A stretch of 64,000 nucleotides of DNA from Muribaculaceae bacterium. GTDB taxonomy: Bacteria > Bacteroidota > Bacteroidia > Bacteroidales > Muribaculaceae. The DNA lies in the NCBI GenBank assembly GCA_029061925.1, contig JAIDRE010000059.1, positions 2,193 to 66,192 of the forward strand, read 5' to 3'. Below, one piece after another: positions 3,239 to 32,528 of the stretch. Position numbers and translations under genes: made by a program. Below the pieces are notes generated by a model, which had not been told where the DNA came from, did no database searches, and was given only the letters and a program-made list of their open reading frames with translations. The number at the start of each line of letters is the position of its first letter. Positions within the stretch are counted from its first letter, which is position 1.

Positions 3239-4603
3239 ATGAAGGAACTAAAGCCTGAACAGATAGAAGACATCCGTCACATTATTGACACCGGCGACAA
3301 AGATGCTGCCACTCAGGAGCTCGCCGACATGCACCCCGCCGAGATTGCGGAACTTTATCAGGAACTTGACGAAGAGCAAGGTGAGACCCTGTTCAACATG
3401 CTTGAAGGCGACACGGCTGCCGACGTGCTTATGGAACTTGACGAAGAAGACCGTAAGCGAATCCTCAGCGATATGTCGCCCGAGGACATCGCCACCAACA
3501 TCATCGACCACCTCGATACCGACGAGGCGGTTGACCTTATACAGGAGATGGACGAGGAAGAACGTGACGAAATCCTCTCTCATATCGACGACGTTGAGCA
3601 GGCGGGCGACATCATCGACCTCTTGAAATATGACGAAGACACTGCCGGTGGTTTGATGGGCAAGGAAATGATTGTAGTCAACGAAAACTGGTCAATGCCC
3701 GAGTGTATCAAAGAGATGAGAATGCAAGCCGAAGACGTTGACGAAATATATTATGTATATGTTGTTGACAATGAGCAACGTTTGAAAGGTACGCTTCCTC
3801 TCAAGGAGTTAATCACCCATCCCTCGGTCTCAAAAATCAAACACGTTATGGAGACCGACCCGAAGTCAGTCAAAACCGACACACCGATTGACGAAGTTGC
3901 ACTCGATTTTGAAAAATATGACCTTGTGGCAATGCCTGTCATCGACTCTATCGGACGCCTTGTCGGGCGTATTACCGTCGACGACATCATGGATCAGGTG
4001 CGTGAATCAAGCGAACGTGACTATCAGCTCGCATCAGGTATCTCGTCTGACATTGATGCCGACGACTCAATCTTTGCTCAGGTTAAAGCGCGCATTCCCT
4101 GGCTACTGATTGGTATCGCCTCGGGTATTCTCGCGTCAATAATTCTTTCAACATTCGAGACTCAGCTTGCTGCCGTAACCACTCTTGCGCTGTTCATCCC
4201 GATTATTGGTGGAACAGGCGGTAACGTTGGGGTTCAAGCGAGCGCAATTGTCGTTCAGTCACTCGCCAACGGTTCTCTCGAAATCAAACAGTTTGCCGGA
4301 CAGTTGGGCAAAGAGGTTCTCATCGGACTACTTAACGCCACAATCATATCCGGAGTCATATTTGTCTATAACCTTGTGATGTTGCCCGGTGAATTTGCTG
4401 TCACACTGTCGGTTGCAATGTCGTTGTTTATCGTCGTGATGTTTGCGACAATGCTTGGCACGGTCGTACCGTTGACCCTCGAAAAACTGCACATCAATCC
4501 TGCATTGGCAACCGGACCGTTTATCCAGATTTCAAACGACATTCTCGGTTTGATAATCTACGTTTGGATTTCGACCTACTGCTTGAAAATTTTCGGAGCC
4601 TGA
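3239..4603 (+). CDS. mgtE: magnesium transporter MgtE
   Basis: Acidic MgtE_N region, a CBS pair and a C-terminal transmembrane domain containing IIGGTGGNVGVQ. Confidence 0.92.
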   Translation: MKELKPEQIEDIRHIIDTGDKDAATQELADMHPAEIAELYQELDEEQGETLFNMLEGDTAADVLMELDEEDRKRILSDMSPEDIATNIIDHLDTDEAVDLIQEMDEEERDEILSHIDDVEQAGDIIDLLKYDEDTAGGLMGKEMIVVNENWSMPECIKEMRMQAEDVDEIYYVYVVDNEQRLKGTLPLKELITHPSVSKIKHVMETDPKSVKTDTPIDEVALDFEKYDLVAMPVIDSIGRLVGRITVDDIMDQVRESSERDYQLASGISSDIDADDSIFAQVKARIPWLLIGIASGILASIILSTFETQLAAVTTLALFIPIIGGTGGNVGVQASAIVVQSLANGSLEIKQFAGQLGKEVLIGLLNATIISGVIFVYNLVMLPGEFAVTLSVAMSLFIVVMFATMLGTVVPLTLEKLHINPALATGPFIQISNDILGLIIYVWISTYCLKIFGA

Positions 4604-4604
4604 T

Positions 4605-5093
4605 TTAAAGAATTGTTTCAGCGATTGCCCACACCGCAAGAAAACCTATATAAATAACACCGATTATCTTTATCAGCGTTCCGCTTAAAAATCCGATTAG
4701 CGAACCAACTGCCGATTTAAGCGCAATCTCAAATTCCCTACCGCCGATAAGCTCACCCAACAGTGCGCCCAAAAACGGTCCCGCTATAATTCCTATCGGC
4801 ATAAAAAACAACCCGGCAATTCCGCCTATAAAGCTACCCCACTTGCCGTTGTCTGTACCGTTAAACATTTTAACACCGAGCACGGGCACCACAAAATCTG
4901 ATACAATAGTCAACAGCGTGACCAATCCTGCTATCACAATCCCATACCAACTCATCGCATCGGCCGCCGGAGTGAGCAACAATAGCAAGTAACCGCCAAA
5001 AGCCAGAATCGGCCCCGGAATTACAGGCAAAACACACCCCACAAGCCCGACAACAATTACAACAATCGAAACGATATACAACAAAATATCCAT
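4605..5093 (-). CDS. DUF456-like small membrane protein
   Basis: 162 aa, four to five glycine-rich hydrophobic helices. Convergent with mgtE. Confidence 0.6.
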   Translation of the reverse strand: MDILLYIVSIVVIVVGLVGCVLPVIPGPILAFGGYLLLLLTPAADAMSWYGIVIAGLVTLLTIVSDFVVPVLGVKMFNGTDNGKWGSFIGGIAGLFFMPIGIIAGPFLGALLGELIGGREFEIALKSAVGSLIGFLSGTLIKIIGVIYIGFLAVWAIAETIL

Positions 5094-5105
5094 GTATGGC
5101 CTGAT

Positions 5106-5549
5106 TTACTCGGCGTACAAAGCCTTCATTATATCATTAATGTGATCGTCAATCGTGTTAAGTCCGGTTGACATCATCACTGCAACCATCGTGTCGTTAA
5201 TCGAACGGTTGTCAACGCTTGCCGACATTCTGAATGCCAGTTCGCCATCTTCAGGATCGACAAAGAAATTGCCAAACAAAAGTTTTCTATTAATATTATT
5301 AAGCACTGGTAATATTTTATTTACCTGACTAACGGGAATCGCATGACTCGGAAATACAACCATCGAAAACCATTCGCGCTCTTCATCAAAGAAAAATCTC
5401 AGCTTAATGCGATCATTATCAAGAGTGAAGCCCATATCAAATACTTCATCTTTTTCGTCATAGTGATAGTTATATTCGTTTGAGTCAAGGTAATCCTTAA
5501 TCGTTGTAGCGATTAAGCCCATATTTGCCGGATAGTTTTGTTGATCCAT
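5106..5549 (-). CDS. YbjN-domain (putative sensory-transduction regulator/chaperone-like) protein
   Basis: 147-aa soluble acidic protein whose overall pattern resembles the YbjN family. The assignment is from memory only. Confidence 0.5.
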   Translation of the reverse strand: MDQQNYPANMGLIATTIKDYLDSNEYNYHYDEKDEVFDMGFTLDNDRIKLRFFFDEEREWFSMVVFPSHAIPVSQVNKILPVLNNINRKLLFGNFFVDPEDGELAFRMSASVDNRSINDTMVAVMMSTGLNTIDDHINDIMKALYAE

Positions 5550-5581
5550 CGTTGTGTTTTTATTACTGATTATTACATCTA

Positions 5582-5612
5582 CAAAATTACAAATTCAAAA
5601 ACATTTTGCAAA
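5582..5612 (-). promoter_or_regulatory. Bacteroidota-type promoter for the YbjN-like gene
   Basis: On the minus strand: TTTG (5612-5609), 19 nt, TAATTTTG (5589-5582). It sits about 33 nt upstream of the ATG at 5549. Confidence 0.45.
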
Positions 5613-5625
5613 ACCAAAGGTATAT

Positions 5626-5660
5626 AAAAAATGAAAGTGTACTTCTTCACAGAAGCACAC
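5626..5660 (-). terminator. strand-specific intrinsic terminator
   Basis: Minus-strand RNA reads GUGUGCUUCU-GUGA-AGAAGUACAC. That is a 10-bp stem including one G-U (an A-C mismatch on the plus strand) with a GNRA loop, followed by UUUCAUUUUUU. Confidence 0.55.
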
Positions 5661-5803
5661 CTCCCTCATAACCAAAATTCAAGTATATTTTAATGTCTAA
5701 CAAATCGTTGTCAGAATTAATCTGTTCAATCAATTCAAAATGATTTTTTTGCCTAAACTTTACTAATTCTAATTATGCTAACTTTGTCTTGCTTTTACAC
5801 TTG

Positions 5804-5834
5804 CAAAGATATAGACAATTTTTCAATTAGCAAA
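5804..5834 (-). promoter_or_regulatory. orphan Bacteroidota-type promoter inside the 350-nt intergenic region
   Basis: On the minus strand: TTTG (5834-5831), exactly 19 nt, TATCTTTG (5811-5804). No ORF follows before the terminator at 5626-5660. Confidence 0.4.
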
Positions 5835-5901
5835 GTAAAAATATATAGTTATATCTAAAATAATGTTAATTTATCACCTTTTTTGTGTTAATTTGTCATT
5901 T

Positions 5902-7320
5902 TTACTTCACTTCGACCGACGGATTGACATAATATAAGCAATCTGTCGCACGAGTTGTCGCCGTGTAAAGCCATCGGTATAGGTCAGGCTCGGTATAAGC
6001 TTCGGGAGGAATATAACCCATATCGACAAACACGTTTTCCCATTGTCCGCCCTGAGCTTTATGGCACGTTACGGCGTAGGCAAATTTCACTTGAAGCGCA
6101 TTGAAGTAGGCATCGGTCTTCAACGACCTCAATCTCGCTTCGTATGGAACTTCGGGAGCAAAACGTTCCTCATCATCGACAACAATCTTTGCCAACAATT
6201 CTTGTTTATCTGGCTGAAGCGAAGGGGAATCTGATATTAACGAGTCAAGCACTATCTTGCAGTCGAGTTCCACATCACGGTCTATAAACCGCAACTTCAA
6301 GTCGGCAAACCGCAATCCTCCACAACTCTCAGTACCATAAATTTTCACCACCTCGGCAATATCGCCATTAGCAATAAAGTCCAGACCCTTGACTCCGGCA
6401 CTCCAGAAATAGTTATTTTTTGCCACCAACAGCAAGTCACCACGACACAATTCCTCTTCTCGGTCAAGAATACGCGCCCTGATTGCAAGGTTGAATTCAA
6501 CCGCACGTCGGTTTGACCGCGTAATCATCAATGTGTTTTCAAGTCCGCCACGGCTATAGCATCGCTCCATTATTTCATCCAATTCAATCGGGTCAACAGC
6601 CTTCACATCACTGAAAGGTGTGACAGTCAGAATTGGCGGAACCAACGGGTCGAGCCTCATCATCTTTCGAAGAACCGTAGCATTGTATAAGATTCCCGAT
6701 TGTCGATGTTGACGAACGGTTTCTGTCATCACCACCCGTGTAACCTTCAACCCCATATTAATAAGCACCGCAGGGTCTAATGCCGGACTCGATGTCGTTC
6801 CGACCGGCGGCAACTGTGCCGTGTCACCGAGCAAAATAAGCCTGCATCCAACACCCGAGTACACATATTGAACAAGATCGCTCAACACGCTCCCACTGTA
6901 GCCGTCATTACCCCCAATCATCGAAGCCTCATCAACCACAAACAACGTGTCAATCGACTTATTTTCAGCTCGCTGAGCCCATCCCATTCCGGGACCGACA
7001 CCGGGCAATGCACTTCGGTATATACGCCGGTGAATTGTATAGGCAGGATAACCGGCATATTGGCTGAAGACTTTTGCCGCACGTCCGGTCGGAGCCAACA
7101 AAACCGACTTGACATTGATGTCACGTAACGTCTTGACAAGAGCCGCCGTCACCGAGGTCTTACCAGTTCCGGCATATCCGTTCAACAAGAATACCCCGTT
7201 GGGCGAAGCCGATCTCGAACAAAAACGAGCCAGGGCAGCAATCAATTGTTTTTGCTGCCCTGTCGGTGTATAGGGTAGATTGTCGATGACGCGGAGTGCA
7301 AACTCTTCAGCTTCCATCAA
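5902..7320 (-). CDS. RecD/Pif1-like SF1 DNA helicase (AAA_30 + UvrD_C_2 type)
   Basis: Walker A GYAGTGKTS, Walker B FVVDEASMI, and a C-terminal TCHKAQGGQWENVFV motif. Confidence 0.8.
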   Translation of the reverse strand: MMEAEEFALRVIDNLPYTPTGQQKQLIAALARFCSRSASPNGVFLLNGYAGTGKTSVTAALVKTLRDINVKSVLLAPTGRAAKVFSQYAGYPAYTIHRRIYRSALPGVGPGMGWAQRAENKSIDTLFVVDEASMIGGNDGYSGSVLSDLVQYVYSGVGCRLILLGDTAQLPPVGTTSSPALDPAVLINMGLKVTRVVMTETVRQHRQSGILYNATVLRKMMRLDPLVPPILTVTPFSDVKAVDPIELDEIMERCYSRGGLENTLMITRSNRRAVEFNLAIRARILDREEELCRGDLLLVAKNNYFWSAGVKGLDFIANGDIAEVVKIYGTESCGGLRFADLKLRFIDRDVELDCKIVLDSLISDSPSLQPDKQELLAKIVVDDEERFAPEVPYEARLRSLKTDAYFNALQVKFAYAVTCHKAQGGQWENVFVDMGYIPPEAYTEPDLYRWLYTATTRATDCLYYVNPSVEVK

Positions 7321-7327
7321 TAATCTT

Positions 7328-8815
7328 TTATTTCAAAGACCATTCAAAACCGTCTTTGGTGTCTTTTACGTTAAAGCCGATCTCGGCAAGACGGTCTCTG
7401 ATAAGGTCACTGGTCGCCCAGTCTTTCTTCGATTTAGCCTCTGAGCGTATTGAAAGCAACAGATCCATTGCTTCTTCAAACGGTTTCATAGCGTTGGCAT
7501 CGGTTCCGCTTACCATTTCGTCTCTCATTCCGAGAATCTCAAAGAGGAATGTATCAAAGAGTTGACGAAGATTCTTGATATCCTCGGCAGTTGCTTTTGC
7601 CGACCCGTCATTAATAAGGTTAACAATGCGGCTTGCATCAAAAAGATGAGCAATTACAATTGGAGTATTCAAGTCATCATCCAAAGCCTCATAACATTTT
7701 GTATAAAGCCCTTTGATTTCATCTGAAACAGTTGATGTATCAGACGGTTTCAAGTCATTGATGCGACGATAGCCTTCCAACATTCGCTGATATGCTTTCT
7801 CTGATGCCTGAAGTGCCTCATTTGAGAAGTCAAGAGTCGAGCGATATTGAGCCTGGAGGATGAAAAAGCGGATAGTCATCGGCGAATAAGGTTTTTCGAG
7901 CAACGGATGTTTGCCCTCAAAAAATTCGTCAAGAGTAATGAAGTTACCCAAAGACTTACCCATCTTCTGACCCTTGATGGTAATCATATTGTTGTGCATC
8001 CAGTATTTCACGGTCGGATGTCCGTTATGAGCTACCGATTGGGCTATCTCACACTCGTGGTGGGGGAACTTCAGGTCCATACCGCCACCATGAATATCAA
8101 ACTGTTCCCCGAGATATTTCTCGCCCATTGTCGAGCATTCGAGGTGCCAGCCGGGGAAACCTTCGCTCCAGGGCGATGGCCAGTGCATGATATGTTCGGG
8201 TGACGCTTTTTTCCAGAGGGCGAAGTCGGCAGGATTGCGTTTTTCGCTCTGACCGTCAAGCTGGCGTGTCTCGCTAAGAAGCTCGTCGATGTTACGTCCT
8301 GAAAGAATACCATAATTATGGTCACGGTTATATTTGGGAACATCGAAATAAACCGAGCCTTCGCTCTCATAGGCATATCCGCTTTCAAGAATCTTCTTGA
8401 TATATTCAATCTGCTCAATGATATGACCCGACGCATGCGGCTCGATTGACGGAGGCAAGACATTCAGTTTGACCATCGCCTCGTGGAAACGTGTCAGGTA
8501 ATACTGCACAACCTCCATTGGTTCAAGCTGTTCAAGACGTGCTTTCTTTGCAATCTTGTCCTCACCCTCATCGGCATCATGTTCAAGGTGACCGACATCT
8601 GTGATGTTGCGGACATATCTCACCTTGTAACCAAGATGTTTCAGATAGCGGAACAACACGTCAAAGGTGATAGCCGGACGTGCATGTCCGAGGTGACCGT
8701 CGCCATATACAGTCGGACCGCAAACATACATTCCGACATGTTCGGGATTCAACGGCTTGAAAGTTTCTTTATTGCGTGATAAAGAATTGTATATCGTCAA
8801 ATTATGTTCCTTCAT
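7328..8815 (-). CDS. cysS: cysteine--tRNA ligase
   Basis: HIGH-type motif HLGHARP and KMSKS-type motif KMGKSLGN. The ORF-track start at 8824 is a TTG, so I prefer the ATG at 8815 ([12 protein letters not shown]). Confidence 0.93.
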
Positions 8816-9848: not shown

Positions 9849-10515
9849 CAGTTGAAATAGTGATTTTTTCAATCTGTCCGTCTCTAAGATGGATAATACG
9901 GTCGGCAGCCGCTGCGAGCGATTCATCGTGAGTGACGATTACAAATGTCTGATTCATGTCACGTCTCAAGTCAAAAAAGAGCTTGTGAAGTTCCTGTCGA
10001 TTAGCCGTATCAAGGCTTCCTGACGGTTCATCGGCAAGCACAACCTCAGGGTTGTTGATCAACGAGCGGGCAACCGCTCCACGCTGACACTCTCCACCCG
10101 ATAACTGAGCCGGACGATGCTCAAGACGGTTTTCAAGTCCAAGATATTTCAGCAGTTTCTCAGCCTTAGCCATTGCCTCGCGTCGCGATTCGCCACCTAT
10201 CATCGCCGGGATTGCAACATTTTCAAGAAGTGAAAACTCGGGCAACAGACGGTGAAACTGAAACACAAATCCGATGTTTCGGTTTCTAAATTTAGCCATC
10301 TCGTTTGCCGAAAGTTTGAAGATGCTGTTCCCGTTAAACGAGACTTCACCCGTATCGGGACGGTCGAGCGATCCCATTATCTGCAACAAGGTTGATTTAC
10401 CGGCTCCGCTTGGACCGACAATAGAAACAATCTCACCATCGTTGACCGACAGCGACACACCTTTCAAGACCTCTAAACGGTCAAAACTTTTTCTAACGTT
10501 TTTAACTTCTATCAT
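9838..10515 (-). CDS. ABC transporter ATP-binding protein (LolD/MacB type)
   Basis: Walker A GPSGAGKST, signature LSGGECQR, Walker B VVLADEPSGSLD. Confidence 0.85.
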   Translation of the reverse strand: MIEVKNVRKSFDRLEVLKGVSLSVNDGEIVSIVGPSGAGKSTLLQIMGSLDRPDTGEVSFNGNSIFKLSANEMAKFRNRNIGFVFQFHRLLPEFSLLENVAIPAMIGGESRREAMAKAEKLLKYLGLENRLEHRPAQLSGGECQRGAVARSLINNPEVVLADEPSGSLDTANRQELHKLFFDLRRDMNQTFVIVTHDESLAAAADRIIHLRDGQIEKITISTDGK

Positions 10516-24244: not shown

Positions 24245-24323
24245 CATAAGTCAAATTAAAACTATCAACCAACCAAGCCTTATAATTAGACCTTATAATA
24301 TTTATGTTCTAAAGCATAAACTC

Positions 24324-24354
24324 TTTGAAACTTAAATAATATTTTATAATTTTG
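24324..24354 (+). promoter_or_regulatory. consensus Bacteroidota promoter of the island operon
   Basis: TTTG (24324-24327), exactly 19 nt, TAATTTTG (24347-24354). The predicted transcription start is about 24359-24362. Two 9-bp direct repeats CCTTATAAT lie upstream at 24278-24286 and 24291-24299. Confidence 0.6.
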
Positions 24355-24359
24355 CACTG

Positions 24360-24490
24360 CAAGTAACGACAATCTGAAAATGACCAGTAAGTAGAATAAA
24401 AGACATACGGCGAGAGCCGAAAACCCTTTAAAACTCCCATGTAGTCGTTACCGGCTTTGGTCAGCCTTCAGATGCTATATTGGGAGTTCT
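24360..24490 (+). promoter_or_regulatory. candidate structured 5' leader / cis-regulatory RNA upstream of the methyltransferase fusion
   Basis: Perfect complements: 24363-24370/24444-24451 (8 bp), 24372-24378/24467-24473 (7 bp), 24381-24386/24458-24463 (6 bp), 24432-24439/24481-24488 (8 bp). There is also a CGGC-GAGA-GCCG hairpin at 24408-24419. Confidence 0.4.
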
Positions 24491-24532
24491 CTGTATAAAA
24501 AACATATCAAAAATAATATTGTAATATCAATA

Positions 24533-27058
24533 ATGAATAAAGATATCCTTTCAGAATTAAAGGACACTCCGGAACAGACATTAGTTGTCGGTCCTTTGGT
24601 TGAATTACTTGTCAAAGGAGGTTGGCAATTAGGTCAAATTATATATGGGAAAAATGAATGGAAAGTACCCAGGACTCCTTCGGAGGCATCTAAACGAGAG
24701 AAAGGCTCTTCTTTCGATTATTTTCCTGTTGATATTGCTGTATTTGATAGTGTTGCTAATTGTGGTGATTATCGCCACCTATTATTCATCATTGAGTGTA
24801 AACAACCTAAGATTGATGTTGGTCTTCAACAACTTGAGACCTACCTTTCTTTAGAGCCTCATGCAAAACTTGGCATATGGGTGAATAACGCAGATGCAAG
24901 TGCAAATGCACTTTTCGTTTATAAAAATGAAAAGGGGCTCCAATTTCCTAAACATAAAAAAGTCAAAGACTTTCCAATTGTAGGTAGCCCTTTGACTCCA
25001 GCCACTGTTTCTCTTACGTTTAATGATCTCGTTATACCAACGAAGGATAGTCTTTACCGTACTTTTTCAGATTTGTTGGACAAGGTGGTTGCACAAGATG
25101 GTAATGTTACCCGTAGGGAAGAACAACTGGATCAACTTTGCAACCTTGTACTCTTAAAACTTGATAGTGACAAGCAAGGAAAGATTGATTCTGAGGCAAC
25201 TGTATATTTTAGGGCCTTTGCTACAGAAAGTGCAACAGCAGACTACATAAAATCAAAATTTAAAAACTTTATAGATGTATATCCAGATATTTTTGTTTCC
25301 AAGTCAGATCAAGAAATACGTTTTGATGATGCGACTATACATGATGTCGTAGAGTGTCTCTCTACTTTCAATCTAATTGATATCGGTGCAGATACTGTTT
25401 CTATTGCTTTTCAAGTTCTACGTAGCGCAGCACTAAAGCAACAAGAGGGTCAATATTTCACACCTAAACAAGTTATTCAAGCAGCCCTTCGTCTTATAGA
25501 AGTATCTCTTGATGACATTATCATGGATCCGGCATGCGGGACAGGTGGATTCCTAATTCAAGCTTTAATAGATATGAAAGAAAGGTATCCAAATCAAGAA
25601 AAGGAGATATCAAGATGGGCACAACTGCATATTTTTGGTATTGATAAAGATGCTATAGGTATAAAACTTACCAAGGCAATAATGCAGATTCTCAATGACG
25701 GTTCTGCTCATTGTGTAAGGGGAGATAGTGTTTTGACTCATACATGGAAAAATAAATATCCTCATTTACTATCAAATCAATTCAAGAATGGGAGATTCAC
25801 AAAAATTTTCACCAATCCTCCTTTTGGTGCTCCTTTAAAGATAAAATATGCTGATGCTAAAAAATCTTCATTGAGTATTGTGGAATATACGGAACAAGGT
25901 AAAGATATTGAATTGGGGCTACTAATGTTCAATAGGTGTGTAGATTTACTAAAAGAGGGTGGTAAATTATGCATTGTTCTTCCTGAAACATACTTTTTTT
26001 CGCCGTCATATAAGTATGTAAGAGAGTGGGCATTTGAAAGATTGAAACCAATTTGCGTTGCAAATGTTCCAATGGATGCATTTCAAGGATTCTGTAGGGC
26101 AAAAACAAATCTTTATATTTTTGAGAAGATATTTGAAGGTCAGTCTAACATTGACTTTGAAAATGATACTGTGGCTTTTATCAATCCAACTTCTTGTGGT
26201 ATTTATAAGAACGGTGCAGATAGATTTGTTGTAGATTCAAATGGAAATCGAACAAATGTAATAGATAATCAGTTGCTTGCTCAAGCCACAGAATATGCTA
26301 ACAAAGATATGAAACATGCTTTTAATATTCCATTGAAAGATGTGCTTAAATCTGGAGTGCTTGTCCCCCAATACTTTGACAAAACGTTACAATATCCATC
26401 TGAAAAATTGTATACATACTTAGGAACTCAGGGAATAAGTATCGGGGAACTTATTGACAAAGGCATTATTCAACTATTTAATGGACACGGAAGCCCTAGC
26501 AATGATCTGAGGAATGGTGAAGTCCCATATGTGAAAGTGTCAGATATTCGCAATTTACGAATTAATGTCAATCCAACTAATCTTATTCCACTTCCATTAG
26601 CGCAAAAGTTTTGGAAATCTGAGGATGGGAAAAGCAACCTTAAAGCATGGGATTTAATTTCTCCGAGTCGTGCGAGTAGTAATATTGGAGAGTTTGCTAT
26701 CCTTTTACCGGGCGAAGAATCTATTGTTCTAACTAAAGAAGTTTTCATTATACGAGTTAATCATAATTCGATTGGAATTACTCCTTTCTACCTTTTATGG
26801 GCTTTAAGCCTTAAAGAAACGCGAAAACAATGGGCTAGGGTTACGCTTATGCAAACTAACCGTGAAGATGTTGGTCAAAGATACCGCGAAATCACAATTC
26901 CTTATCCATTGTCTGCCAGCTGGGCTGATAAAGTATGTAAATCGTTTAGAGATTATTTTGAAGGTATTGCAAAAGCGAAGGCAAACTTTGTTGCAAGTAC
27001 ATCCACAGACGAATTCAACTATATTGCAAGTGTGAGTGCTTTTAATCAGAGTTTGTAA
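24533..27058 (+). CDS. single-chain PD-(D/E)xK-like domain + gamma-class N6-adenine DNA methyltransferase + one TRD (type IIG-like R-M-S fusion)
   Basis: N-terminal FPVD(67)IAVFD...LFIIE(88)CK(90) resembles the HsdR N-terminal nuclease fold. MTase motifs: QYFTPK (aa 307-312), DPACGTGGF (aa 332-340, nt 25526-25552) and NPPF (aa 428-431, nt 25814-25825). The C-terminal roughly 210 aa start like an HsdS TRD (IGELIDKGIIQLFNGHGSPS...GEVPYVKVSDI). Confidence 0.8.
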   Translation: MNKDILSELKDTPEQTLVVGPLVELLVKGGWQLGQIIYGKNEWKVPRTPSEASKREKGSSFDYFPVDIAVFDSVANCGDYRHLLFIIECKQPKIDVGLQQLETYLSLEPHAKLGIWVNNADASANALFVYKNEKGLQFPKHKKVKDFPIVGSPLTPATVSLTFNDLVIPTKDSLYRTFSDLLDKVVAQDGNVTRREEQLDQLCNLVLLKLDSDKQGKIDSEATVYFRAFATESATADYIKSKFKNFIDVYPDIFVSKSDQEIRFDDATIHDVVECLSTFNLIDIGADTVSIAFQVLRSAALKQQEGQYFTPKQVIQAALRLIEVSLDDIIMDPACGTGGFLIQALIDMKERYPNQEKEISRWAQLHIFGIDKDAIGIKLTKAIMQILNDGSAHCVRGDSVLTHTWKNKYPHLLSNQFKNGRFTKIFTNPPFGAPLKIKYADAKKSSLSIVEYTEQGKDIELGLLMFNRCVDLLKEGGKLCIVLPETYFFSPSYKYVREWAFERLKPICVANVPMDAFQGFCRAKTNLYIFEKIFEGQSNIDFENDTVAFINPTSCGIYKNGADRFVVDSNGNRTNVIDNQLLAQATEYANKDMKHAFNIPLKDVLKSGVLVPQYFDKTLQYPSEKLYTYLGTQGISIGELIDKGIIQLFNGHGSPSNDLRNGEVPYVKVSDIRNLRINVNPTNLIPLPLAQKFWKSEDGKSNLKAWDLISPSRASSNIGEFAILLPGEESIVLTKEVFIIRVNHNSIGITPFYLLWALSLKETRKQWARVTLMQTNREDVGQRYREITIPYPLSASWADKVCKSFRDYFEGIAKAKANFVASTSTDEFNYIASVSAFNQSL

Positions 27059-27138
27059 TCAATTTTATAATGAAATCTGACTAAAAACAATGGAGGCCAT
27101 GCCATTTAGTAAATAATTAAGCAGTGTAATCATAATTT

Positions 27139-29442
27139 ATGAAAGCAATATATCTAGATTTACACATACATACCTCAGAAGATGCAAATAAGCCTAATGC
27201 ATCCTATGATATAGCAGAATTGGTTCGTAAGATCAAGGAGTATAATGACAACTCTGATTTTATGATTTCCCTTACTGATCATAATATGATTAATAAGGAT
27301 GCTTACCTCAAGGGATTGGCATTAGGAATTAAAATGATTTTAGGGGTTGAATTACATATCAAACATGAAGATGATGTAAAGGCTTATCATTGTCATATGT
27401 TCATCAATAAAGAAATTACAGAAGATACAATTGATGACATAAACAAGATACTAGATAAACTATACCCAGAAAAATTACCGAATAGAACAGAGTCGTCTAT
27501 CCCTGATATTCAGCAGATAATTAATAGTTTTGATGATTATGATTTTATGCTTTTGCCTCATGGCTCTCAACGACATGGAGCGTTCAATTATTCAATTGGC
27601 AAGGATAAACGTTTAGACAATGCAATAAATAGATCCATATACTATAATCAATTTGATGGATTTACTGCTCGAAGTAATGACGGTTTAGAACAAACAAATG
27701 AGTATTTTAAAAAGCTCGGTATTGCCGAGTTCATTAATTTACTTACTTGTTCTGATAACTATTCTCCCAGTAGTTATCCATCCACAAAAAGTAAAGAAGC
27801 AAATGAATTTGTTCCAACATGGATGTTTGCAGAACCAACATTTGATGGCCTTCGCCTGTCCTTGTCTGAATCATCTAGATTAGTGGTACAAAAAGATAAA
27901 CCTGTAGTCAGAACTGATCATATTGGACATATAGTGCTCAAGAATGAACATATTGACATTGATGTAACATTATCGGATGGTTTAAATGTGGTTATTGGAG
28001 GATCCTCTTCTGGGAAGACTCTATTTGTCGATTCAATTTTTAAGGCCATTAATCATTCGTTTGAAGGTTCAAAATATGTCGATAGATATGGGGTAGATCG
28101 AATTGCAGTTGAGAATCCTTCAAATATGCTTCCGTATTACATCTCTCAAAATTTCATTGCAGAGAATATTAGTGATAACAATGAGAAGTCTATTGACGAA
28201 ATAGAAATACTTCATAATATTTTCCCATCAGACAAAGAAATTAATCAGCAGATTACAACGGCATTAAATTCTCTGAATACCATTGTTGCAAATATGTTAA
28301 ATCATGTAGCAACAATTGAATCTTGTATAACGTCACTCAATGCCCTTCCACACCCAGGAATGATGGTGGTTAATACTGTAGTAAAAAGGAATATCTATAA
28401 TTCGTTTATACCTAAAGATGAAGAGACAAATAGTATTAAATACTCTCAACCTACATATGAGGAGCATTTAAAGAACCTTCAAGAGATTAAGATATTCCTT
28501 GAGAATAATCCTCTGACGCAAGATCTAATTAGAGAGTTTCAATCTATAGAAAACGAATTAAAATTTGCTTATCAAGCAAGTAATGTTTCTAATGAAATAT
28601 TACACCACATATTGGATAGAAAGAAGAATGTTGATGTCCATTTGCGTGAAACACAGGGCATTGATCAAGAACGATTACAGAATAAGGAACGTTTAATGAC
28701 GTTAATTGCCAAATATGTATCAGCAATAAAAGGTTTTTATGCATGTAGAAAGCAATTGTCTGAAACTAAATATTCCTTTTCTACGAATATTGTTGAGTCA
28801 ATGGGACATAAATTATCTATTCATAATAATTTTAAGTTTGATGAAAATATCCTAATCACCACTCTAAACCAATATCTTAAATATTCGTTTAAGAGAATGA
28901 GTGATGTTATCCCGGAGAATTTATTCAAAAGGTATTTTAAAGATCGTCCCCGGGTTGAGTCGTACGATGAATTAGGTAGAAAGATTCAATCGTACTTGTC
29001 GGATGCCAATACAAAATCATATCAAATCACGACAAGCAATGGTGTCGACTTTAATTCACTGAGTCCGGGATGGAAAACGGCGATCTTATTAGATTTAATA
29101 TTAGGATATGAGGATGATAATGCCCCAATAATTATTGATCAACCAGAGGATAATCTTGCAGTAAAATATATTAACTCTGATCTCGTTGCCACTATAAAAA
29201 GAGTAAAAACCAGAAAGCAGGTAATTCTAGTTTCCCATAACGCGACCATTCCTATGATGGCGGATGCTCAGACAATTATTTTGTGTGAGAACGACGGTTC
29301 CAAAATCACTATTCGGTCTGCATCTTTAGAAGGTTTAATCGGAGACAAAAAGGTTCTTGACTATATCGCGGATCAAACTGATGGAGGAAAATCATCAATA
29401 AAAAAACGTGTGAAAAAATATAACTTTAGACATTTTAATTAG
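27139..29442 (+). CDS. PHP-domain phosphoesterase fused to a Rad50/SbcC/RecF-like ABC ATPase with a long helical insert
   Basis: PHP motifs: DLHIHTSED (aa 7-15), LTDHN (aa 45-49), GVELH (aa 69-73), LLPHG (aa 138-142). ATPase motifs: Walker A GGSSSGKT (aa 287-294, nt 27997-28020), signature-like LSPGWKT (aa 641-647), Walker B PIIIDQPED (aa 663-671, nt 29125-29151), H-loop VSHN (aa 698-701). About 340 aa separate Walker A from the signature. The architecture recalls the single-gene Ppl system (PplA) and possibly the name TrlF-like AAA ATPase. That is from memory and needs an HMM check. Confidence 0.75.
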   Translation: MKAIYLDLHIHTSEDANKPNASYDIAELVRKIKEYNDNSDFMISLTDHNMINKDAYLKGLALGIKMILGVELHIKHEDDVKAYHCHMFINKEITEDTIDDINKILDKLYPEKLPNRTESSIPDIQQIINSFDDYDFMLLPHGSQRHGAFNYSIGKDKRLDNAINRSIYYNQFDGFTARSNDGLEQTNEYFKKLGIAEFINLLTCSDNYSPSSYPSTKSKEANEFVPTWMFAEPTFDGLRLSLSESSRLVVQKDKPVVRTDHIGHIVLKNEHIDIDVTLSDGLNVVIGGSSSGKTLFVDSIFKAINHSFEGSKYVDRYGVDRIAVENPSNMLPYYISQNFIAENISDNNEKSIDEIEILHNIFPSDKEINQQITTALNSLNTIVANMLNHVATIESCITSLNALPHPGMMVVNTVVKRNIYNSFIPKDEETNSIKYSQPTYEEHLKNLQEIKIFLENNPLTQDLIREFQSIENELKFAYQASNVSNEILHHILDRKKNVDVHLRETQGIDQERLQNKERLMTLIAKYVSAIKGFYACRKQLSETKYSFSTNIVESMGHKLSIHNNFKFDENILITTLNQYLKYSFKRMSDVIPENLFKRYFKDRPRVESYDELGRKIQSYLSDANTKSYQITTSNGVDFNSLSPGWKTAILLDLILGYEDDNAPIIIDQPEDNLAVKYINSDLVATIKRVKTRKQVILVSHNATIPMMADAQTIILCENDGSKITIRSASLEGLIGDKKVLDYIADQTDGGKSSIKKRVKKYNFRHFN

Positions 29443-29451
29443 AGCAAGAAG

Positions 29452-29697
29452 ATGACATTAAAATTTGATAAGACTCCAAATGGAGACATCTCGATATGTA
29501 TCTATGATGGTACAAATATTCTACCATTCTCATATGTTGAGTTAATCAAGAATATAATGGCAAACGATATTATTGAAACTGATTACTCATCATCAATAAC
29601 AGAAGATGAACACAAGCAAATTGATGAACTAATTACCGAAATAGAATGCGTGGTGCATCCTAAAAGTGAATCAGATGCCACACCCTCTCTGTTTTGA
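29452..29697 (+). CDS. hypothetical small acidic protein (81 aa)
   Basis: ATG lies 9 nt after the stop of the PHP-ATPase gene. By my count it has 16 Asp/Glu against 5 Lys and no Arg. I recognise no family. Confidence 0.5.
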   Translation: MTLKFDKTPNGDISICIYDGTNILPFSYVELIKNIMANDIIETDYSSSITEDEHKQIDELITEIECVVHPKSESDATPSLF

Positions 29698-29779
29698 CGT
29701 AACTGCCTAGGCGAAAGGGGTATTGACAGTCGCTTCATCGTAATAAATTGTAATATATATCTGTCCAATTTATAGAAAT

Positions 29780-30628
29780 ATGAAACTTATATATAAAAGT
29801 CGAGGATTTCCTATTACTATAGAGAAATATATCCCAAATTCTTTTGCATACGATCAATGGGTTATATCGGACGAATATTCTAAAGTAGCTGTTGGTAATG
29901 AATATAGGATTGTCGTAACTTCTTTGGCTGATATACGAGACCATAATGACCTAACTCTTATAGCAGTCCAAACTTCCGCATTTATAGAAAAGCTAACCAT
30001 GCTTCTAAAGTATGCGGTAGGCATGTCACTAAATTCTCCACATAAGCAAATAACATATCGGTGTACACGTGGTATTGATATTAGAGAATTACCTAATGGG
30101 TGGAATGCCAACATAGACGAAATAGACTCTTTCTTAATGGAAACTCGTTCGTCACACATTAGTATAACTGTATTTCCCAATAACGCCAATATGCCTACTT
30201 CTGCGTTGCCAGAATTACAAATAGCACTTAACAACTACGATGCACTTGATGAGGAAATAAAGGATCTGATAGCTCTTCATAATAGTGCTGTTGAATCAGA
30301 TGAGCGCTCATGTTTCCTTATTATGAGTAAAGTTCTTGATATGATAAACTTCTTATATCCTCCATCTAAATCTCATCCCCATAATGATAAAAGGATCTCA
30401 CAATATTTTCCGGAACTTCAGCCTTTTTTCATTGACACAACGATAAGGAAATTATTTGAAATATCAAATCAAAGAAAAGAGACGAGACACTACGAAAATC
30501 AGAAGACCCGTACTCCCCACAAATCCATTAAAGGACACGAAGCAGAACAATTTTTCCAACGTGTTGATGTGCTTGCATTATCGGTTGTCCGGAACAGGTT
30601 AGGATTGCCACCTCTAAATATAATATAA
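29780..30628 (+). CDS. hypothetical protein (282 aa); helical C-terminal half with an Rx4H motif (possible HEPN-like)
   Basis: Longest ORF in this interval and on the same strand as its neighbours. RKETRH (aa 232-237, nt 30473-30490) is flanked by predicted helices. I recognise no family. Confidence 0.5.
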   Translation: MKLIYKSRGFPITIEKYIPNSFAYDQWVISDEYSKVAVGNEYRIVVTSLADIRDHNDLTLIAVQTSAFIEKLTMLLKYAVGMSLNSPHKQITYRCTRGIDIRELPNGWNANIDEIDSFLMETRSSHISITVFPNNANMPTSALPELQIALNNYDALDEEIKDLIALHNSAVESDERSCFLIMSKVLDMINFLYPPSKSHPHNDKRISQYFPELQPFFIDTTIRKLFEISNQRKETRHYENQKTRTPHKSIKGHEAEQFFQRVDVLALSVVRNRLGLPPLNII

Positions 30629-30666
30629 TTAAATTTTAGGTCAACTTATAAACATAGAAAAAGATT

Positions 30667-31008
30667 ATGAATTCCAATGATATACGCCCTTTGATAAATC
30701 AACTTTCCAAATCAACCTCAAAGGAAGAACAAATAATCATTAAATCCTTCCTCTCTGGCTCGTATAAAGCAGAGTATGATTATGTAATGGCAATTTTAGA
30801 TAAGTCTATTTGTGTCTCTAAAATTTCAAGTGATGCAATAGACAAGGCTGTTGAATGTACTAAATTATTCAACGAGGCTATGGCATTATCTCAGGATCTC
30901 AATGAGGAACAACGAAAAGAAGCGGAATTACGCCGTGAAGGAATTGCGCAAGAATTCAAAGAGCATTGTTATGCGACAATACGCTCTTATGGTATAAAAA
31001 TTGAATAA
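30667..31008 (+). CDS. hypothetical helical protein (113 aa)
   Basis: ATG lies 38 nt after the previous stop and the composition is helix-rich. It is the last gene before the convergent minus-strand gene. I recognise no family. Confidence 0.45.
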   Translation: MNSNDIRPLINQLSKSTSKEEQIIIKSFLSGSYKAEYDYVMAILDKSICVSKISSDAIDKAVECTKLFNEAMALSQDLNEEQRKEAELRREGIAQEFKEHCYATIRSYGIKIE

Positions 31009-31067
31009 TCCATCTATTTGGGGAAACTTTTTGATTAAAATATATTAAGGACTGGTAATAAGTAAGT

Positions 31068-32528
31068 TTAATCTTTTACAACAACCCAATGCCCATTTTT
31101 ATCACTCCCTTCGCGTGCTATCATACCTAATTGGCGGAGAGCCATAGTTGCTCGTTTTGCGGTTTTGTCTGTTATAGATAATTGTTCTGCTATTTCTCGA
31201 TGAGTTATATTGTGATTCTCTTTAATTCGAGCAAGAACTTGTCGCTGTGTCTCGGTTAGATTTACAGGGACATTTACAGGGACATTTACAGGGACATTTA
31301 CAGGGACATTTTTAGCATCATCACTATTTTCTGTTTTTCTTTGGATAGCTGATTTCAGAGGGAAAGAGACTATGGCTTTTGTCCGGTCACTATCAACTGA
31401 CGGGCGTGTCCCTGTAAGTGACTCCCAGCTTGCAAGTTTATTCATTCCGTAACCGGCATTTTCAGCGATACCGACAAATCTGAACAGTTTCGCAATAGTC
31501 GGATTGCGGAGCTTGGAGTAAACTTTTCCAATAATGTCTTTTACAGGGAGCGGGAAGCATCCTCCGTTCATAAACTCTATATGATCGGTATAAACGCGGA
31601 TACAGGAGCGCAACGAATCGAAGTGGTCGCCGTGCATAACCATATTTGCAAGTGCCTCTCTGAGAACATTATATTGGCTCTCATCTGTTGTCGCAAATCC
31701 ATCTTCTTTAATATGGATTGGTGCATCAACAAGTGTACGAAATCGTCGCAAAATAATTTGGACTGAATCCCATATATTGTCTTGTTCTGGTATTCGATAT
31801 GTGTATCTAACTTCTGCCTGTTCAATAGTTGGACCGGGGATTTCGATATAGTCAACACAGAATGTCGGCACATAGCGTAAGACATAGGGAGCTTTGCCGA
31901 ACATCAGAAGTCCGGCATAGGTTAGCAAACCATTTCGCGTGATGTTGACCTGCTCGCAGAATTCAGCATCATCCACCTCGCGGAGATTGACAAGATTTTG
32001 CGTCTGACTAAGTGCGAATCTATAACTTTTTAATGTATTGAGATTAAGCATATCAATACTCGTATCGGGAATAGTCTCCTCGGTTTTCTTTCCAAAGGAT
32101 TGATCACGAAACATGGCGCGTATCTCACCTTCAGTTGCCCTTTGGTCTCCGCTACCCATTCTGATGAATGTGTTGATAGGGCTACCATAATATACCGGTT
32201 TTAAATCAACCTCCGGTACATAAAAAGCAAGAAGTTTCTTGCCGTCAATGTCGTATTGCTTAGAAGTTACTGCCAATCTTTGGTTAAACTTCTCTGATCG
32301 CAGAGTGCCAAGAAAATCCTGTTCAAGTTTCTCAATGTTATCCACCCCTTGTATCTCAAATGTCTTGCCGGTCTGCTTCACTCCGAGTACAATCCATCCG
32401 CCGGAGGTATTCGAGAATGCGCTGACGCTTTCCCAGATATTCTTCGGTAACTCAGATTTTGCAGCCTTGACTTCAAAATCTTCCCATTCTATGTCGTGCA
32501 GCTTTGCTACAAGTTCATTCTTGGTCAT
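31068..32528 (-). CDS. COG2865-type protein: AlbA_2 (Schlafen-like) N-domain + HATPase_c_4-like domain + C-terminal wHTH
   Basis: N-terminal E(W)EDFEVKAA...SAFSNTSGGWIVLGV pattern, central ...REALANMVMHGDH..., and C-terminal wHTH (LTETQRQVLARIKENHNITHREIAEQLSITDKTAKRATMALRQLG). Confidence 0.75.
   Translation of the reverse strand: MTKNELVAKLHDIEWEDFEVKAAKSELPKNIWESVSAFSNTSGGWIVLGVKQTGKTFEIQGVDNIEKLEQDFLGTLRSEKFNQRLAVTSKQYDIDGKKLLAFYVPEVDLKPVYYGSPINTFIRMGSGDQRATEGEIRAMFRDQSFGKKTEETIPDTSIDMLNLNTLKSYRFALSQTQNLVNLREVDDAEFCEQVNITRNGLLTYAGLLMFGKAPYVLRYVPTFCVDYIEIPGPTIEQAEVRYTYRIPEQDNIWDSVQIILRRFRTLVDAPIHIKEDGFATTDESQYNVLREALANMVMHGDHFDSLRSCIRVYTDHIEFMNGGCFPLPVKDIIGKVYSKLRNPTIAKLFRFVGIAENAGYGMNKLASWESLTGTRPSVDSDRTKAIVSFPLKSAIQRKTENSDDAKNVPVNVPVNVPVNVPVNLTETQRQVLARIKENHNITHREIAEQLSITDKTAKRATMALRQLGMIAREGSDKNGHWVVVKD
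31261..31308. repeat. perfect 12-bp tandem repeat x4 (TTACAGGGACAT), in frame
   Basis: Read directly from the sequence. It encodes (NVPV)x4, seen in the protein as VPVNVPVNVPVNVPVN, between the HATPase-like domain and the wHTH of the gene at 31068-32528. Confidence 0.95.

Follow-up and report, generated by a model that had tools for sequence, protein, structure and literature searches.

A rare protein family from gut Bacteroidales defence loci with a C-terminal half probably related to the HEPN domain of ApeA

The gene described here encodes a 282-residue protein and lies in a 64,000-nucleotide stretch of the Muribaculaceae bacterium contig JAIDRE010000059.1 (positions 2,193 to 66,192), referred to below as the window. 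An earlier note on this DNA had proposed that the protein is an orphan and may be a HEPN-type effector with a novel N-terminal sensor domain. We find that it is best described as a member of an uncatalogued HEPN-like family with a novel N-terminal domain, akin to known restriction-linked HEPN effectors. Profile comparisons suggest that its C-terminal half is probably related, distantly but really, to the HEPN domain of the anti-phage protein ApeA, while HEPN membership is not established. We give somewhat better than an even chance to the explanation that the protein is a latent, autonomous, ApeA-like HEPN RNase that acts as an abortive-infection effector.

Family and conserved residues

The open reading frame (ORF) and the R232-KETR-H237 motif of the target protein are both found where the earlier note had placed them (Table 1), with R232 encoded by nucleotides 30473-30475 and H237 by nucleotides 30488-30490. 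The two hydrophobic stretches that it quoted as flanking the motif are also present, CFLIMSKVLDMINFLY at residues 178-193 and AEQFFQRVDVLALSVVRNRL at residues 255-274. The ratio of nonsynonymous to synonymous substitution rates (dN/dS) of the target against its relatives is 0.07-0.19, and the + strand frame is therefore supported as the coding one. Scans of the protein with Pfam, NCBIfam, PADLOC and PHROG gave no model match, in agreement with the earlier impression that it carries no family signature. The same note had cautioned that a short motif alone is weak evidence, and rightly so: one Rx4-6H motif was found, compared with 1.5 expected by chance from the composition of the protein, and the presence of one such motif is thus uninformative by itself.

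The designation as an orphan, by contrast, was wrong. A word-indexed search identified 42 close homologues at 49-95% identity, all of them unnamed proteins and nearly all metagenomic, and an exhaustive profile search extended the family to 121 clusters at 50% identity, mostly of 280-300 residues. Conservation was counted over 73 diverse full-length members, whose alignment has a mean column identity of 21%. Three residues, W108, R236 and H237, are invariant (73/73), and position 187 is acidic (E or D) in every member. E254 is kept in 72/73, Y42 in 71/73, K184 in 68/73, and N111, N230 and R232 in 70/73 each. The conservation of the motif pair R232 and H237, singled out by the earlier note as residues to be compared among homologues, exceeds chance at this level of overall identity.

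PADLOC found nothing in the 73 members, no domain fusions were found in the longer members of the family, and the phage and plasmid collections held no record of it. The family was absent from 200 close-relative genomes (0/200) and from 400 other genomes of the phylum (0/400), and was found at 11 loci among GTDB species representatives. It is rare and sporadic, and occurs mostly in uncultured gut Bacteroidales. One member comes from an isolate genome, that of Prevotella sp. HCN-7019 (L016:10001-10830), in which the gene is broken by a frameshift in a run of seven A's (~10143-10150). Relatives of this gene encode S-T-K-K-T at the site, consistent with a longer A run, and the frameshift could reflect slippage, phase variation or sequencing error.

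Predicted structure

AlphaFold2 gave a model with a mean predicted local distance difference test score (pLDDT) of 73 from a shallow alignment, and one with a pLDDT of 93 and a predicted template modelling score (pTM) of 0.89 from the 73-sequence alignment. The N-terminal half of the latter model contains five strands (residues 4-48) followed by helices 55-80 and 112-122. The earlier description of the first ~140 residues as beta-rich therefore holds for the strands and misses the two helices, the domain being mixed beta/alpha. It resembles no known domain: Foldseek gave no match, and comparison of the N-terminal halves of the family and of ApeA with hhalign gave only P = 0.27, so that its novelty, as proposed earlier, stands.

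All of the secondary structure from residue 143 onward is helical, as had been anticipated for the C-terminal half, with helices 143-153, 158-172 and 175-192, short helices within 205-217, and helices 222-230 and 252-274. The candidate HEPN elements are H1 (158-172), H2 (175-192), an insert (193-221), H3 (222-230) and H4 (252-274). The Rx4H motif is located at the C-terminal end of helix 222-230 and at the start of the following loop. In the published HEPN layout, the motif is found where helix 3 ends, helix 2 contains an acidic residue, and inserts occur between H2 and H3 (PMC3710099). The target agrees with this layout in the order and lengths of its predicted helices, in the place of the motif, in the acidic residue of helix 2 and in the insert that follows this helix. 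The earlier note had wished its proposal to be judged by a four-helix HEPN core, and the order of the predicted helices suggests that the protein may have such an up-down bundle. That note had put the HEPN motif at a helix start; the published layout and the model both have it at a helix end.

Similarity to the HEPN domain of ApeA

HEPN_Apea (PF18739) is the sole Pfam family that was matched by several members (4/73, E = 0.03-1). The two matches that were inspected cover profile positions 54-133 of 136 and residues ~202-297 of the protein, in the expected register. For profile-profile comparison, we used an alignment of 23 ApeA sequences, 12 of them from Bacteroidota genomes and the rest consisting of the ApeA of locus L012 (see below) and its homologues. 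The full-length family aligns collinearly with these 23 sequences in hhalign, with residues 61-280 on ApeA 203-444 (P = 0.004), and the C-terminal halves align with P = 0.003 and a score of 23.7. In control comparisons, a reversed alignment scored 16.8, and 60 block shuffles had a mean of 14.5 and a maximum of 23.2. The comparison was calibrated on profiles that were just as thin: ApeA with Abi_C, both of them true HEPN families, gave P = 0.27, and our family with Abi_C gave P = 0.25. The alignment sets K-A-L-E-I of family helix 175-192 against Q-A-L-E of ApeA.

Hidden Markov models (HMMs) gave signals in both directions. When the ApeA-HEPN HMM was run on 167 family sequences, the top score was 13.9 bits and 15 sequences reached at least 5 bits, compared with 0-3 of the shuffled family sequences; it places N-x-R-x4-H-Y onto N230-R232-H237-Y238 of family members. 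The HMM of the C-terminal half of the family scored ApeA proteins at 12.2, 11.8, 11.6, 10.9 and 9.0 bits, compared with at most 4.1 bits for shuffled ApeA (20 replicates) and at most 1.2 bits for Abi_C proteins.

A number of results weigh against the assignment to HEPN. All of the profile evidence for it is sub-threshold by conventional standards: the best Pfam HEPN score of any member is 14.6 bits, compared with a cut-off of 24.4, and the window protein itself has no match to HEPN_Apea (0 bits). A repeat of the hhalign comparison with other column settings returned the same alignment at P = 0.026 and a probability of 1.9%, and one shuffle replicate reached 12.5 bits with the ApeA-HEPN HMM, against the real top score of 13.9. 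The HMM of the family C-terminal half aligns in a register four residues off, with R236-H237 on the R-H of ApeA; the two HMM directions thus differ in register, and either R232 or R236 may be the counterpart of the ApeA arginine. A search of 12 ApeA-bearing genomes with the family HMM returned nothing at E <= 10. Residue 233 is a lysine in close relatives and variable across the wider family, rather than a polar N, D or H, and the acidic motif takes the form K184-x2-E187, compared with the typical Ex3[KR] of HEPN proteins. Sequence searches of the PDB with both family profiles gave no match. Foldseek, which the earlier note had suggested for an AlphaFold model, returned no hit with E below 0.02 and listed no HEPN structure among the first 50 when the pLDDT-93 model was compared with the PDB and BFVD, and it found nothing with the first model (pLDDT 73). 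The PDB copy that was searched contains no ApeA structure, so that a fold match to the closest candidate relative was not possible.

The earlier proposal of a HEPN-type effector thus holds in part. The conserved motif, the helix layout, the weak ApeA similarity above controls, and the defence and restriction-modification context (see below) speak for it, whereas the failure of Foldseek to find a HEPN structure, of any member to reach a Pfam threshold, and of the repeated hhalign run to do better than P = 0.026 speak against it.

Table 1. Coordinates of the target gene, its parts and the surrounding cassette in the window
Feature	Position	Strand	Description and basis
Gene of the 282-residue target protein	29780..30628	+	ORF, ATG start; member of an unannotated family of ~280-300 residues
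N-terminal domain, residues 1-142	29780..30205	+	Five strands, long helix 55-80, loop with P-x-G-W108-x-x-N111 motif (AlphaFold2)
C-terminal helical half, residues 143-282, candidate HEPN domain	30206..30625	+	AlphaFold2, hhalign, reciprocal HMM scores
K184-x-x-D/E187, candidate second acidic HEPN residue	30329..30340	+	In helix 175-192; conservation, hhalign
R232-K-E-T-R236-H237, Rx4H motif	30473..30490	+	N230 before, Y238 after
Constant promoter/leader block of the operon	24288..24491	+	blastn, 79-85% identity; common to L010, L011 and L013
Variable cargo between leader and tail	24533..29697	+	841-residue HSDR_N + N6_Mtase enzyme, 767-residue PHP + ABC ATPase (TrlF/Ppl-like), acidic 81-residue protein
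Constant tail block	29757..31586	.	blastn, 90-91% identity with L010 and L011
orf113	30667..31008	+	113 residues, helical, isoelectric point 5.3; no Pfam, NCBIfam, PADLOC or PHROG match
AlbA_2 (Schlafen-type) + HATPase_c_4 + winged helix-turn-helix gene	31068..32528	-	Convergent with the target; Pfam

Genomic contexts

We surveyed 22 independent loci bearing family members, the window among them (the others are designated by L-numbers). About 17 of the 22 are defence contexts, comprising restriction-modification operons (9/22) and some eight loci of other kinds. In the restriction-modification operons, the family gene is the last gene or lies between subunits, and taking these and the other defence operons together, it is usually last. 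An association of HEPN genes with restriction-modification operons is an established pattern that extends to at least 16 HEPN clades and has PrrC/EcoprrI as its paradigm (PMC3710099).

The window and L013 share an HSDR_N + N6_Mtase enzyme, a PHP-ABC ATPase of the TrlF/Ppl type and an acidic 81-residue protein, while the methylases of L010 and L011 are different ones and are accompanied by AAA_13 ATPases. The family gene is accompanied by SNF2/PLD, an MmeI-like methylase and an SMC_N ATPase in L001, by a methylase, an AAA_21 ATPase and ApeA in L012, by a type IIG methylase and HsdS in L015, by type III mod and res in L017 and L020, and by MmeI in L035. The other defence loci feature Fic; trypsin-NACHT; a helicase, NUDIX and DUF6361; SIR2-STAND; a RADAR-like pair with a large adenosine-deaminase-type protein; an ABC-3C-like cluster with DUF2326; HIRAN; and an HNH and Schlafen-helicase neighbourhood. 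No defence genes are nearby in 5/22 contexts (L014, L018, L033, L038 and L060), and at some loci the family gene occurs alone.

Three of the neighbourhoods merit description. Locus L012 encodes a bona fide ApeA of 459 residues (6501-7880, + strand), in which ApeA_NTD1 and HEPN_Apea are both above the Pfam cut-offs, located 39 nucleotides upstream of a family member (7958-8794) that is 76% identical to the target. This family member lies behind the methylase, the AAA_21 ATPase and ApeA, so that two ApeA-type genes stand in tandem. L034:1-8861 is a co-directional operon of an ADP-ribosylglycohydrolase, DUF6361, a 603-residue protein, a 1004-residue helicase, a 230-residue protein, NUDIX and, beginning directly at the NUDIX stop, a family member; the operon may be a defence system that has not been described before. 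L057:890-7722 encodes an 885-residue protein, a 92-residue protein and an 867-residue protein with a weak adenosine-deaminase match, followed by a family member, and the sizes and order of these genes resemble RADAR (RdrA/RdrB).

A mosaic cassette around the gene

The target gene lies inside a low-G+C island (0.32-0.36, compared with ~0.46 in the flanks) that starts right after mfd and in which no Rfam or tRNA feature was found. Only the leader and tail blocks are common to the window and L010/L011 at the DNA level; the matching blocks are at L010:901-1087 and 6111-7929, and at L011:378-584 and 6396-8119. The methylase and ATPase genes between the blocks are unrelated between the window and these two loci. 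The tail block runs from 23 nucleotides upstream of the target, through the target and orf113, into the 3' part of the convergent AlbA_2 gene. Between L010 and L011, the methylase gene is the sole difference, L013 has the whole window cassette behind different upstream DNA, and the similarity of L001 and L012 to the window is limited to the target ORF. Reading the five genes as one fixed system was rejected in view of this mosaic of constant ends and variable middle found with blastn; rather, it looks as though restriction modules are exchanged as cassettes between conserved ends.

Copies of orf113 that are 92-93% identical follow the target in L010 and L011, and the dN/dS of 0.19 indicates purifying selection. 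The gene is absent after the more distant target homologues. As orf113 is present only after near-identical target copies, it is not a family-wide partner, and its role as an obligate partner or antitoxin was rejected. The convergent gene with AlbA_2 and HATPase_c_4 (and winged helix-turn-helix) recurs at L017:9275-11212 and L035:7255-8784, within ~3 kb of family members that share only 29-34% identity with the window protein; in L017, both this gene and the target homologue lie between type III mod and res.

The ATPase genes of L010 and L011 belong to the same AAA_13 type. In L011 it encodes 786 residues (4025-6385, + strand) and has a C-terminal RRLLE...NTESH segment reminiscent of the anticodon-nuclease triad of PrrC/RloC, while L010 has this gene in two pieces, as separate ORFs (3740-4915 and 5033-6100, of 391 and 355 residues). 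A "split PrrC" arrangement, in which the target would be the nuclease missing from the upstream ATPase, was discarded: the AAA_13 protein of L011 has a PrrC/RloC-like C-terminus of its own, and the target is therefore not simply its missing nuclease.

Comparison with known systems

The family resembles ApeA in its C-terminal N-x-R-x4-H-Y, in a conserved glutamate in the preceding core helix (K-A-L-E in the family, Q-A-L-E in ApeA) and in a terminal helix ending in L-G-L/F, and ApeA provides both its only repeated weak Pfam match and its best profile-profile match. Each is a single polypeptide without an antitoxin, and restriction-modification operons harbour ApeA genes as well (PMC3710099). 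The target is, however, much shorter (282 residues, compared with ~450-580 for ApeA), its N-terminal half is unrelated to ApeA_NTD1 (PF18862), with no Pfam match, and its family has the additional invariant R236 and lacks a polar N after the first R. The target was not classified as an ApeA, since it has no ApeA_NTD1, is below the HEPN_Apea threshold and is about half the size. A "mini-ApeA" that would include the N-terminal domain was rejected on the unrelatedness of the N-terminal halves (P = 0.27).

With PrrC and RloC, the target shares a location at or near the end of restriction-modification operons (9/22 loci), the presence of ABC-type ATPase genes immediately before it in several loci, and, by analogy, an expected role as a latent second-line RNase (PMC3710099). 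PrrC and RloC are ABC ATPases fused to HEPN, whereas the target polypeptide has no ATPase domain or P-loop and the ATPases are separate upstream genes; their HEPN motifs also differ from that of the target. Given its PrrC/RloC-like C-terminus, the AAA_13 neighbour in L011 would make two separate effectors at that locus. Assignment of the target to PrrC/RloC was excluded by the lack of any ATPase family match in the 282-residue protein.

AbiD/AbiF proteins (Abi2; Abi_C, PF14355) are similar in size (~220-310 residues), in having a variable N-terminal part and a C-terminal HEPN-type motif, and in occurring as single genes in defence-island contexts. They differ in showing no detectable profile similarity (hhalign P = 0.25) and in the form of the motif, which is R-N-x-x-x-x-H-G in Abi_C. 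HepT, the minimal toxin of HEPN-MNT pairs, may share the Rx4H catalytic logic, judging from the motif, and is the closest structural relative reported for the HEPN domain of ApeA (preprint 10.64898/2026.01.26.701840). In contrast to HepT, the target has no MNT antitoxin partner, and Foldseek gave no match to the HepT structures present in the PDB. The methylation-associated defence system (MADS) was considered on account of the cassette methylase, which is MAD2-like but below the cut-off (168 bits, compared with 720 for NF047738); it was dismissed since the mad gene set is not present at equivalog scores, and the target matches no mad model.

Proposed mechanism and alternative explanations

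In the favoured explanation, the C-terminal half would be a divergent HEPN domain whose nearest counterpart is that of ApeA. R232 and H237 would form a metal-independent RNase site, aided by the acidic residue 187 of helix 2, and the active site would become complete when two HEPN domains dimerise, which is how other HEPN enzymes form theirs. The enzyme would be held latent, with the novel N-terminal domain (W108, N111 and Y42) gating it or sensing an infection signal. Such gating is suggested by analogy with ApeA, a tRNA anticodon nuclease that cuts anticodon loops and is gated by a small-molecule/ligand pocket (preprint 10.64898/2026.01.26.701840). Once activated, the protein would cut cellular RNA, most plausibly also in tRNA anticodon loops, and the resulting stop of translation would amount to abortive infection. 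The gene would be a self-contained module riding last in restriction-modification and other defence operons, as a second layer behind them. Its autonomy is indicated by the ORF-only DNA similarity to L001 and L012, by its occurrence alone at some loci and by its absence from related genomes (0/600).

The same enzyme could instead be the constant part of a modular operon, a PrrC-like guard that is held inactive by the upstream restriction-modification or ABC-ATPase proteins and freed when a phage disables them. PrrC-EcoprrI provides a precedent (PMC3710099), and several observations favour such a guard. The leader and the tail of target plus orf113 are conserved among the window, L010, L011 and L013 (79-95% DNA identity) while the methylase, or the methylase and the ATPase, are swapped, four cargo variants include an ABC-type ATPase gene (TrlF, AAA_13 or SMC_N) ahead of the target, and the intergenic gaps in L015, L034 and L035 are very short. 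We nevertheless regard this arrangement as unlikely, as a single specific interaction is hard to reconcile with so wide a range of partners (type IIG, type I-like, type III, MmeI, RADAR-like, SIR2-STAND and Fic), several homologues have no defence neighbour, only the target ORF is shared in L001 and L012, and the ATPase of L011 already has its own PrrC/RloC-like C-terminus. A broader version, to which we give a lower probability still, would have the family as the constant effector tail of a modular Bacteroidales operon, with recombination replacing whole restriction-modification and ABC-ATPase genes between this tail and a conserved promoter leader. The protein would then be an ATPase-less, HEPN-like universal guard that reads a generic signal of restriction failure (DNA-degradation products or ATPase state) through the W108/N111 domain, whatever restriction system lies upstream.

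A different objection to the ApeA-like RNase concerns the fold itself. R236-H237, W108 and N111 might belong to a novel fold in a defence-island protein that is not HEPN at all and acts as a DNase, in nucleotide or second-messenger binding, or in protein modification, its likeness to ApeA being due to chance or convergence. The pLDDT-93 model has no Foldseek match of any kind, all HEPN sequence similarity is sub-threshold, the register of the motif alignment is ambiguous, and R236, W108 and N111, unexplained by a HEPN model, are as conserved as the canonical pair. We consider this doubtful, since the similarity to ApeA is collinear over ~140-200 columns and exceeds the reversed, shuffled and Abi_C controls in both directions, and the protein agrees with HEPN in the place of the motif, in the acidic residue of helix 2 and in the insert between H2 and H3. 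If the protein had no part in defence and were a passenger or regulator in variable genome regions, the five contexts without defence genes would be accounted for. Such a role is highly improbable in view of the ~17/22 contexts that are defence loci and of the scans with Pfam, NCBIfam, PADLOC and PHROG, in which no DNA-binding or regulatory domain was found. Moreover, the gene is patchily distributed and horizontally transferred (0/600 related genomes) and yet under strong purifying selection, a combination that is typical of defence genes.

Implications

HEPN genes inside restriction-modification operons have been described since 2013, and a specialist would expect such a find more than be surprised by it. 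If confirmed, an uncatalogued HEPN family with a new N-terminal domain, missed by PADLOC, Pfam and NCBIfam, would join the RNases that back up restriction-modification. With a compact length of 282 residues, the protein could be a tractable model for the gating of a HEPN nuclease that has neither ATPase nor antitoxin. Finally, with restriction genes that can be exchanged between a constant leader and a constant tail, the cassette suggests a way in which gut Bacteroidales may switch restriction specificity while keeping the same second-line effector.

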